Source: an uncultured Anaerolinea sp. (lineage in GTDB: Bacteria > Chloroflexota > Anaerolineae > JAAEKA01). Taken from it: a stretch of 64,000 bases of DNA. The stretch spans positions 69,051 to 133,050 of the forward strand of contig CAZVGR010000002.1 in the NCBI GenBank assembly GCA_964626845.1, written 5' to 3'. The notes beneath the pieces are model-generated. The model was given only the letters and a program-made list of their open reading frames with translations, was not told the DNA's origin and did not search any database. Below, in pieces: positions 6,355 to 58,370 of the stretch (its first letter is position 1; each line of letters begins with the position of its first letter). The position numbers were made by a program, and so were the translations under genes.

Positions 6355-6466
6355 GTAACTACTCAGCCACAGGCGCCGGGCACTTGCCTTTGCACCTCCA
6401 GCGACGTCTGTCGAACCGATTTCAGCCGTCCACGGGGTGCAAGTGCCCGGCACCTGTGTAGTAACC
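6355..6466. repeat. Family-A ~110-bp palindromic element, copy 1 (diverged)
   Basis: Outer inverted arms ..ACTCAGCCACAGGCGCCGGGCACTTGC ... GCAAGTGCCCGGCACCTGTGTAGTAAC with the conserved core GTCTGTCGAACCGATTTCAGCCG. Confidence 0.7.
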
Positions 6467-6479
6467 TGGAAAGGGTGAT

Positions 6480-7391
6480 TTACGCTGCGTCGTCCTCAAA
6501 CATAGCCGCCAAGGCATCGCTCTCCTGTTCGTCCAGGATTTCGCCCAGCTCCTCGCGGCTGAAGATGTAGCGCTCGTGGCAGAAGTGGCAGTCGACGACC
6601 GCCTCGCCTTCGACGATCAGAGCCAGCAGGTCATCCTCGGTCAATACTTTGAGCGCCTGGCGGGAGCGCGCGCGGCTGCACGAACAACTGAAAGCCAGCG
6701 GTTGCTGCTCCAGCACGGTGTAGGCCAGGCCATCCAGCGCCCGCTCCACAATCTGTTCTGGCGTATGGCCGGCCGCCAGATAGCTGGCCAGCGGCGGCAG
6801 GGCGGCCAGGTTTTCCGCCACCCGCTGCAAGACGTCGGCGCTGGCCGCTGGCAGGGGCTGAAAAAGCAGCCCGCCGGCCGCAACCAGCGCGCCCTGCGCA
6901 TCCAGAAGCGTGCCGATCTGCGTCAATGTCGCCGTTTGTTCCGATTTCTCGAAGTAGTGATTGAGGCTGGCGCCCACGCCGCCGTCCTGAACCGCCACTG
7001 CGCCCTGGTAAAGGCCGCGCAGGCCCAGGTCCTTGACCACGGTCAGCAGGCCAACGCGGCCCAGCGCAGCGGCTGCGGCGTCGCCATCGATGGGCAGCGG
7101 CCAGGGCGTGTCGTGGGCGGCCACATAGCCGCGCACGCGTCCGTTGGCGTCCGCCTCGACCACCATCTTGCCCAGCGGGCCATCAGCCTCGATCTTCAGG
7201 GCTACCCGCTGCCGCACCTTGAGCAGCCCGCCCAGCAGCGCAGCCGCAGTCAGCCCATCGCTCAGCGCGGCTGCGGCGATGGGCGTTGCGCTGTGGCGGC
7301 GCGCCCCCTCGCGCGCCAGCTCGCTGGTGACGCAGACCAGCCCGCGCAGGCCGGCTTCTTTGCTCATCACACGTATTGTATAATCGTTCAT
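6480..7391 (-). CDS. hslO: Redox-regulated chaperone Hsp33
   Basis: 303 aa. C-terminal zinc centre CSCS...CHFCHERY (CxC-Xn-CxxC) and an N-terminal Hsp33-like domain. Confidence 0.85.
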   Translation of the reverse strand: MNDYTIRVMSKEAGLRGLVCVTSELAREGARRHSATPIAAAALSDGLTAAALLGGLLKVRQRVALKIEADGPLGKMVVEADANGRVRGYVAAHDTPWPLPIDGDAAAAALGRVGLLTVVKDLGLRGLYQGAVAVQDGGVGASLNHYFEKSEQTATLTQIGTLLDAQGALVAAGGLLFQPLPAASADVLQRVAENLAALPPLASYLAAGHTPEQIVERALDGLAYTVLEQQPLAFSCSCSRARSRQALKVLTEDDLLALIVEGEAVVDCHFCHERYIFSREELGEILDEQESDALAAMFEDDAA

Positions 7392-7530
7392 GAAAGATTT
7401 TCCACGCTCTCAAAATGGGTGTAACACTTGGCTGGCAAGGCGTTTGCTTGCGCCCGACGAGCGCCAGCGCCACCCGTTAATCATACCCGCAAACCGCACG
7501 ATGGTCAAAGCGATAAGACTGCCGCTCTCT

Positions 7531-7558
7531 TTGACTGTTGGGTCGCAACAGCTATAAT
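7531..7558 (+). promoter_or_regulatory. Candidate sigma70 promoter (TTGACT-16-TATAAT)
   Basis: Near-consensus hexamers about 225 nt upstream of the secreted-protein gene. This implies a long 5' UTR if it is used. Confidence 0.3.
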
Positions 7559-7782
7559 GATGTCGGGGACGCGATTTTCGTCTCTTTTCGTCTAATAAAA
7601 CAGCACGGTTCGCTGGTTCAACACTGCACGATTTCAGTCCAACGTCAAGCCCCCAAGAACGTCAAGTCCAGCAATCCTTGGCGTTCTTGGCGACTTTGCA
7701 GAAAACTATGACCTGCTGAGTTGAAGCACTGCGCCGCCCCTCTGTTATCCGCCTTAGTGGTGCCTATTTCAGGAGAAAACCC

Positions 7783-57900: not shown

Positions 57901-58158
57901 GTCTACTCTCATCCTGGTTGCCGAGGCATCATCGGGCCGGTCCCTCCGCCTCTCTGGATAAGAGCGTTCAAGGCTATAAAATTGTGGGCGGGATAGTAAC
58001 ATAGCGAGTGTGATTTGTCAAAAGCGGGTAACTATTCGGCCACGGCGCCGGGTGCTTGAGTAGTAACATCAACCGATCGAGAGTTGAGCGAGGCTGATCT
58101 GGAATCGCCTCTGATGATTTTGCGTCCCACCCTGGTTGTGGTATAATCTCCATCGTTC

Positions 58159-58232
58159 GGGCGGTTAGCTCAGTTGGTTAGAGCGCCACGTTGACATCGT
58201 GGAGGCCATAAGTTCGAGTCTTATACCGCCCA
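58159..58232 (+). tRNA. tRNA-Val (anticodon GAC)
   Basis: GGGCGGTTAGCTCAGTTGGTTAGAGCGCCACGTTGACATCGTGGAGGCCATAAGTTCGAGTCTTATACCGCCCA. 7-bp acceptor stem, D-arm GCTCAGTTGGTTAGAGC, anticodon loop TTGACAT, T-loop TTCGAGT, no encoded CCA. An extended -10 TGGTATAAT lies ~11 nt upstream. Confidence 0.9.
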
Positions 58233-58241
58233 CTGGCACAG

Positions 58242-58273
58242 GACGACAGGCTGAAAAAGCCTGTCGTTTTTTG
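58242..58273 (+). terminator. Intrinsic terminator after tRNA-Val
   Basis: GACGACAGGCTGAAAAAGCCTGTCGTTTTTTG. Confidence 0.65.
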
Positions 58274-58277
58274 ATAG

Positions 58278-58370
58278 TGCTACTCAGGTGCCGGGCACTT
58301 GCAGTTCATTGGCGGCTGAAATTGGCTCCACAGACTTCGTCAGCAGGCGCAAATCTAAGTGCCCGGCACC
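58278..58370. repeat. Family-A element, copy 6 (inverted orientation)
   Basis: TGCTACTCAGGTGCCGGGCACTTGCAGTTCATTGGCGGCTGAAATTGGCTCCACAGACTTCGTCAGCAGGCGCAAATCTAAGTGCCCGGCACC. The core is the reverse complement of the other copies. Confidence 0.8.

Follow-up and report, generated by a model that had tools for sequence, protein, structure and literature searches.

The repeat family described here, Family A, occurs as six copies in a 64 kb stretch of DNA (the window, by which we mean the whole stretch analyzed) that LysC places in an uncultured Anaerolineae-like lineage of the Chloroflexota. Family A is very probably a non-autonomous, non-coding miniature inverted-repeat transposable element (MITE) of 110–113 bp with ends of the IS66/ISBst12 type (IS, insertion sequence). 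It is ordinary selfish DNA, a known kind of element and not a new RNA, regulatory system or class of system. A preliminary description of this DNA had labeled the family ‘MITE/REP-like’ (REP, repetitive extragenic palindromic). The mobile MITE family stands, but the likeness to REP elements does not, because 8-bp target-site duplications indicate a DDE transposase. The novelty claimed in that description falls on its own terms, since the tips match a known transposon group, IS66/ISBst12.

Within the window, the arm motif GGTGCCGGGCACTTGCA has 14 matches at three or fewer mismatches against 0.7 expected, a count reached by none of 100 shuffled sequences, and the tip motif GTTACTACTCAG has 11 matches against 1.05 expected. 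A covariance model built from 33 complete elements and run over the whole window with filters off returned exactly six strong matches of 84–121 bits, five on the plus strand and one on the minus strand, and all six of the full copies reported earlier (as ‘at least 6’) are confirmed. The opposite strand of the same six sites scored 21–40 bits, and the element therefore has a defined polarity. The copies were also grouped by repeat detection and can be aligned over their full length, with pairwise identities of 66–94%; copies 2 and 5 are closely alike, as had been noted, at 93.8% and not ‘about 95%’. Every copy is intergenic, in agreement with the preliminary description.

Terminal repeats, target-site duplications and transposon affiliation

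Relatives of the window copies were collected by a scan of genomes and by a metagenome scan with a two-arm pattern, which gave 83 loci. The set of complete elements with both tips, drawn from the window, genomes and metagenomes, numbered 33, all of them non-coding and 110–113 bp in length. Both tips of these elements read GTAACTAYTCAG. At its left end the element has a tip of about 14 nt (GTAACTAYTCAGCC), separated by 4 nt (ATAG) from an inner arm (GGTGCCGGGCACTTG); a subfamily-specific core of about 55 nt follows, then the arm in inverted form and a right tip of 12 nt (CTGARTAGTTAC). The spacer between the 12-nt tip and the arm is 6 nt at one end and 0 nt at the other in all 33 elements.

The 8-mers that flank these elements are identical at 8/8 positions in 17 of the 33, at 7/8 in a further 8 and at 6/8 in 2, where 8/8 identity would arise by chance at about 1.5e-5 per element. 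In the window, perfect flanking 8-mers are found at copies 3 and 5. Copy 3 (15612-15722, plus strand, 121.5 bits with the covariance model) is complete, has perfect 12-bp tips and is flanked by GAACATTC on the left (15604-15611) and right (15723-15730), identical at 8/8 positions. Copy 5 (57552-57663, plus strand, 104.4 bits) is likewise complete and is flanked by GCTCTGGG at 57544-57551 and 57664-57671, again 8/8. These two copies had been placed at 15604-15730 and 57544-57663; the extra 8 bases are there because target-site duplications, which lie outside the element, had been counted in. The ‘clean 20-bp terminal inverted repeat’ ascribed to copy 3 resolves into a 12-bp inverted repeat plus the 8-bp direct repeat GAACATTC, a sequence that is itself nearly palindromic. 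A duplication of this exact length is the signature of a cut-and-join DDE transposase. The tips, of 11–12 bp, are 85% paired across the 33 elements and 6 of 11 tip pairs show compensatory changes (e.g., CG in 18 sequences and UA in 9), but this co-variation is not evidence for RNA, since two ends fitted to one transposase would yield it too.

In the proposed mechanism, a DDE transposase supplied in trans would bind both tips, and target cuts staggered by 8 bp would leave the 8-bp direct duplication. Judging from the ends, the mobilizing enzyme would be a transposase of the ISBst12-group type, which may be or may have been present in the lineage and would act on Family A ends.

The duplications also bear on whether Family A could be a REP/REPIN-type element, in which a short palindrome, present as an inverted doublet, is mobilized by a REP-associated tyrosine transposase (RAYT) of the IS200/IS605-like kind. 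Family A resembles a REPIN in size and hairpin shape and has GTAG in its right tip (CTGAGTAGTTAC), and its inner-arm motif shows a REP/BIME-like habit (BIME, bacterial interspersed mosaic element), occurring on other contigs also as 31–34 nt hairpins and in tandem arrays past stop codons. However, tyrosine (Y1) transposases of the IS200/IS605 type, the RAYT class included, insert without duplication, whereas most complete elements here are flanked by 8-bp duplications and have tips like those of a DDE transposon group; no Y1 transposase was detected beside the arm arrays scanned. Family A resembles REPIN/REP-RAYT systems in being a short GC-rich palindrome doubled in inverted orientation and able to form hairpins, with an arm that is also found singly and in arrays, but differs from them in its DDE-type terminal inverted repeats and 8-bp duplications, and no RAYT was found. 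We regard a REP/REPIN-type element as extremely improbable. The link between RAYTs and IS200/IS605 has been described (PMC3733652).

The tips themselves suggest which transposon the MITE derives from. Ends in the IS66 family start with GTAAGCG and are associated with an 8-bp duplication (PMC11946415). ISDge4 from Deinococcus geothermalis, an ISBst12-group element of the IS66 family with a single open reading frame (ORF), transposes experimentally, and has ends GTGACTACTCAGCA / GTAACTGCTCAGCA and an 8-bp duplication (PMC12898284). An IS66-like single-ORF IS on pHTA426 of Geobacillus kaustophilus (L127 14107-15741, 1635 bp) has the tips GTATCTATTCAGCCC and GTAACTATTCAGCCC and the duplication GACGAGTT (8/8), and an IS on an Acaryochloris marina plasmid (L129 510-2060, 1551 bp) has GTTACTGCCCAGGCT at either end and the duplication ACAAATGC (8/8). 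The left ends of Family A read GTAACTATTCAGCCA or GTAACTACTCAGCCA. A left end such as GTAACTATTCAGCCA agrees with the Geobacillus end at 14 of 15 positions, and that of window copy 2 (GTTACTACCCAGGCC) agrees with the Acaryochloris end at 13 of 15. The ISBst12 group (ISBst12, ISDge4 and the pHTA426 element, which is annotated as ISGka4 family) has the terminal GT(A/T/G)ACT(A/G)(C/T)(T/C)CAG(C/G)C and the 8-bp duplication in common with Family A. Its transposases carry PF03050 (DDE_Tnp_IS66), PF13005 and PF20042.

Family A differs from these autonomous elements in size and content: they are 1.55–1.64 kb long with one ORF of about 450–485 aa, whereas Family A is 110–113 bp without a transposase gene. 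It also has inner inverted arms of 14–17 bp, of which there are none in the Geobacillus and Acaryochloris elements, and it resides in an uncultured Anaerolineae-like member of the Chloroflexota. The asymmetry of the element is accounted for as well: a 14-nt IS-type tip has been retained on the left, and on the right 12 nt that lead directly into the arm. Cyanobacterial MITEs such as Nezha are comparable in having inverted tips, target duplications and an origin from an identifiable IS family, though the IS family and the hosts are other than those of Family A. In a plasmid of Deinococcus sp. QL22, the left end of an IS66-family element was observed to start with a 41-bp tip-to-tip mini-palindrome, GTGACTGCTCAGCGGGGGCTTGGACTTGGCTGAGCAGTTA(C) (L128 624-664).

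Several observations weigh against the assignment to IS66/ISBst12-type transposition. The related sequence searched, roughly 660 kb, gave no autonomous partner. Neither the window nor the element-bearing loci (about 600 kb) yielded an autonomous element with Family A ends or an IS66-type transposase; the search for a partner combined tblastn with three ISBst12-group transposases, an IS66 motif scan, long-range tip pairs and clustering of recurrent ORFs. A Pfam scan of the ORFs beside arm arrays did not reveal a partner either. A profile search of the protein database gave cyanobacteria-like or unnamed matches only, and no partner in Chloroflexota. Two of the six window copies (copies 4 and 6) are without a recognizable duplication, and those of copies 1 and 2 are decayed. 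No precise empty site was recovered, as the lysC leader of relatives is too diverged and the MITE segment could not be aligned. In the metagenome set the inner arms look invariant, but this is an artifact and no measure of constraint, because the arms were the search pattern. A scan of viral contigs for the right end gave no matches, blastn of the consensus against plasmids gave no match, and plasmid pO157 contained no IS66 element.

Core sequence, RNA structure and the arm palindrome

The preliminary description had taken the asymmetric core as a sign of function beyond a hairpin, which would make Family A a structured non-coding or cis-regulatory RNA with the conserved core as its functional part. 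Window copies 2, 3, 5 and 6 agree well in the core, the folds of the copies are strong (z -2.6 to -7.35, with a predicted RNA fold of -59 kcal/mol and z = -7.35 for copy 3), and one copy lies in a riboswitch-controlled leader. Across the wider family, the 33 elements fall into about 10 subfamilies with a mean pairwise distance of 0.30. Outside the arms, broad conservation across these subfamilies is limited to about 20 nt adjoining the left arm (TTGAATCTGCGCCTGCAA), a stretch that was not part of the search pattern, and the remaining core is subfamily-specific. The RNAalifold consensus of the 33 elements consists of the 14-bp arm stem only, with a covariation term of 0.02.

In a search of the whole window at Rfam gathering thresholds, only a SAM (S-adenosylmethionine) riboswitch and a tRNA passed; at permissive E-values, the best matches for copies 2 and 3 were to microRNA hairpin models and scored 25 bits, where the threshold is 65. 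Scanning copies 2, 3, 5 and 6 gave no sigma-70-like promoter, and the terminator-like sites that were found all lie outside Family A copies. Orientation relative to genes is mixed. Of the window copies, three (2, 3 and 4) read in the sense direction of their flanking genes, two (5 and 6) read antisense, and copy 1 has convergent genes on its two sides; a rough wider count gave 7 sense and 10 antisense, which is indicative only, since the crude GC3-based gene caller (GC3, GC content at third codon positions) misassigned at least one window gene. The one-sided conserved subterminal stretch resembles a transposon end inherited from a parent IS, and was probably inherited from the end of the parent element. 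A function of the core beyond a hairpin is therefore not supported, given its variation over about 10 subfamilies save for about 20 nt, the lack of covariation, Rfam family or promoter in the copies scanned, and the mixed orientation. An RNA reading appears very unlikely, and we conclude that core conservation among the window copies reflects recent common descent.

Two other candidate features of the sequence were rejected. A sigma-54 promoter in the arm (GGCAC-N-TTGC), read from the sequence, has a GG-to-GC spacing that is one base too long in both main subfamilies. Peptide coding was also considered, and as the preliminary description had cautioned, the start of the 18-aa peptide is not conserved: it is present only in copy 3 (AATGAAG, where the others have AACGAAG or variants), and the ORF is confined to that copy.

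ERIC/IRU and Correia/NEMIS repeats, palindromic MITEs from enterobacteria and from Neisseria, are often co-transcribed with their neighbors and form stable hairpins, and their target duplication is TA, compared to 8 bp in Family A. They are imperfect long palindromes of about 100–150 bp with an asymmetric center and are intergenic, like Family A, but their sequence is unrelated to it, and no internal promoter-like or IHF-type (integration host factor) site was found in Family A. This group is summarized in PMC3733652.

The arms raise a further alternative. A second MITE type of 142 bp (15734-15875, plus strand) lies 11 bp past copy 3, with tips GTTATTGCTCAG...CTGAGCAGTTAC. These tips are as in Family A (GTTAYTGCTCAG) and the inner arms differ (AGAAACCGGGTTTTT); the sister element is flanked by its own duplication, CATTCTTT (8/8, at 15726-15733 and 15876-15883). 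Relatives of this type were found at L111 78-159 (82 bp) and L098 1223-1261. That one set of tips serves at least two internal types argues that the transposase needs the tips and not the arms. The ORF at 15732-16556 probably owes its TTG start to the sister element.

Family A could be a chimera in which IS66/ISBst12 tips surround a host palindrome module, GGTGCCGGGCAC (centered on CCGGG), that is putatively protein-bound, has a function of its own and is spread by mobile copies. The arm motif (Y)AGGTGCCGGGCACTT does occur without IS66-type tips on other contigs, in short hairpins of 31–34 nt, in hairpins with unrelated loops and in tandem arrays with a period of 24–26 nt, and one tip-less arm hairpin lies on a Balneolaceae contig. 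The sister MITE type, with identical tips and different arms that are likewise centered on CCGGG, is consistent with such an arrangement, as tips alone appear to define mobility and arms look exchangeable. Long inner inverted repeats are, however, common in MITEs without a host function. No partner protein was identified, the genes by the arrays are unrelated housekeeping genes, the arm-only hairpins of the window look like decayed MITEs, and the sample was chosen by arm sequence. A host module with a function of its own is possible but unlikely, and the same holds for the broader proposal of a modular element, with IS66/ISBst12 tips of 12–14 nt for mobility, exchangeable CCGGG-centered arms (GGTGCCGGGCAC, or AAACCGGGTTT in the sister type) and a palindrome that is also free-living and REP-like in other bacteria, which we consider doubtful. 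Were the arm bound by a conserved protein, the MITEs would act as carriers that spread a functional site, in DNA or RNA, across Chloroflexota genomes.

Arm arrays that end in a short hairpin were observed just past stop codons or a tRNA gene, next to ordinary genes, at L048 ~950-1075, L050 ~4780-4890, L053 ~5056-5130, L079 ~3529-3612 and L083 ~2703-2760 and on L100.

Copies in the window and the lysC leader

The other four window copies are described in turn. Copy 1 (6355-6465, plus strand, 102.5 bits) is complete with tips GTAACTACTCAG / GTTACTACACAG; the repeat that flanks it, CGGAAAGG vs. CTGGAAAG, is either imperfect or shifted, and GGAAAGG is found on either side. Its neighbors are a HAD hydrolase gene on the plus strand and hsp33 on the minus strand, whose 3′ ends face the copy; both were identified by Pfam matches. 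Copy 2 (14880-14991, plus strand, 89.7 bits), also complete, has flanks CGCTCAGC / CATTCAGC that match at 6/8 positions and is situated between a HEAT-repeat gene and a pentapeptide-repeat gene. Copy 4 belongs to another subfamily (45689-45796, model match 45686-45796, plus strand, 91.4 bits), with an identity of 66–75% to the other window copies; its left tip is shortened (GTAACGCAATCATAGG), so that the copy begins at about 45689, and the TAA in its GTAAC tip is the stop codon of the ORF at 44088-45692. Copy 6 is inverted and has lost its left tip (58274-58387, model match 58276-58387, minus strand, 84.3 bits). Repeat detection found it 91% complementary to copy 5 over 100 nt, and it is located directly past a tRNA-Val gene (58159-58233) and a hairpin with a T-run, the latter read from the sequence. 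A promoter-like site that matches the consensus perfectly (TTGACA, 17 nt, TATAAT) was observed a short way downstream of copy 6, at 58411-58439 on the plus strand and facing the threonyl-tRNA synthetase gene.

Three more degraded relatives were also detected. An internally deleted derivative at 58028-58067 (plus strand, 18.4 bits) has kept both tips (GTAACTATTCGG...TGAGTAGTAAC) and is 6 nt away from the -35 hexamer of the lysC promoter-like site, on its upstream side. A decayed, shortened relative at 25888-25955 has kept its arms (GGTGCCGGGCAT...ATGCCCGGCACC) with degenerate tips, and scores 30.7 and 29.7 bits on the two strands. A decayed arm-only hairpin lies at 22026-22104 (GATGCCGGGCGCTTG...AAGTGCCCGGCATC, 27 bits).

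The pentapeptide-repeat gene at 15018-15476 is bracketed by copies 2 and 3. It has no close orthologue in 5.8 billion proteins, the best match reaching 62% identity, and it looks like an accessory gene. A composite transposon formed by the two copies around this gene was considered and rejected, because the outer flanks are not alike and copy 3 carries a perfect duplication of its own.

Copy 5 lies in the 5′ leader of lysC, as the preliminary description had stated and as a riboswitch match, a Pfam match to lysC and a leader alignment now confirm. It lies antisense to lysC, 43 nt ahead of the ATG at 57508. The leader is ordered as a promoter-like site (58021-57993, minus strand), a SAM riboswitch (57763-57964, minus strand, 74.9 bits in Rfam), a terminator hairpin, MITE copy 5, a ribosome-binding site and the ATG at 57508. 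In four relatives that lack the element the riboswitch and terminator align, and other sequence stands in place of the MITE. The lysC transcript would contain the reverse complement of copy 5, with a predicted fold of -56.5 kcal/mol. A transcribed copy, as in this leader, would be expected simply to fold into a long hairpin (-45 to -60 kcal/mol), with possible incidental effects on termination, translation or the stability of the mRNA. The leader in this sense offers a natural experiment, with a hairpin of about -55 kcal/mol between a riboswitch terminator and the lysC start codon.

Some further features of these leaders were observed. The SAM riboswitch of the window holds a long variable hairpin insert (57803-57910) made of short tandem repeats (GTAGACAAGTAAACAA-like), and the four relatives have different repeat-built inserts at the matching riboswitch position. 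The lysC leaders of the relatives L039 and L041 have a tandemly duplicated GC-rich palindrome (GAGGCGTCCCGCCGAGCCGGGCGAGACGCCCTCTGGATCG) after the terminator and before the ribosome-binding site, at the position taken by the MITE in the window.

Distribution, annotation and other repeats

Family A was found in the Anaerolineales metagenome-assembled genome (MAG) H71_756, on at least 7 contigs, in two Caldilineales MAGs and in many metagenome contigs. The best match of the window LysC is at 94%; relatives with a name are Anaerolinea sp., Anaerolineae and Caldilineae MAGs. The closest relatives, at 88–94% LysC identity, had no Family A copy in 63 kb around lysC, compared to six copies in the 64 kb of the window, and the distribution of the family is patchy. 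A literature search found no paper describing this repeat family.

The assignment of Family A extends the footprint of the ISBst12 group to uncultured Chloroflexota, with two internal types on one tip set. The elements also matter for annotation: they cause false N-terminal ORF extensions, one provides a stop codon, and the repeats break assemblies. The false extensions had been pointed out in the preliminary description and are borne out here, as several of the listed ORFs begin or end within copies. The covariance model or the consensus can be used for masking in Anaerolineae and Caldilineae genomes and MAGs.

Two irregular cases were noted among the wider loci. In MAG H71_756, another element, with the end CAGTAGTTCACGATT, interrupts a Family A copy at CCAATTT (L011 ~87-204 and L034 ~131-158); there is an apparent AATTT duplication and both contigs stop there, and the arrangement looks like an IS inserted in the MITE. 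In a second case, L051 44-154 is alike to L058 1504-1614 and L078 8405-8515 in the MITE and right flank, and the left flank differs in L051; either the copies have recombined or the assembly is chimeric at the repeat.

Other repeats were observed in the window. A separate class consists of intergenic hairpins of tandem 7–8 nt units (GGTAGATT, GGTGATC, GGTGAAC, CGTAACGAGTAA and GGTCAATG) facing their complements, with sites at 21384-21475, 24539-24601, 58830-58926, 35088-35199 and 45081-45132, and further sites at 50668-50712, 55008-55111, 4815-4851 and 20748-20841. A unit of about 112 bp is present in three tandem copies, 80–84% identical, at 24219-24551. Lastly, two long hairpins unrelated to Family A lie at 49633-49750 and 41338-41409, one with 53-nt arms that are 79% complementary and the other of the form CTCTAGCCGGTTCCGTGAACCGGCGG...CCGCCGGTTCATGGAACCGGCTAGAG.

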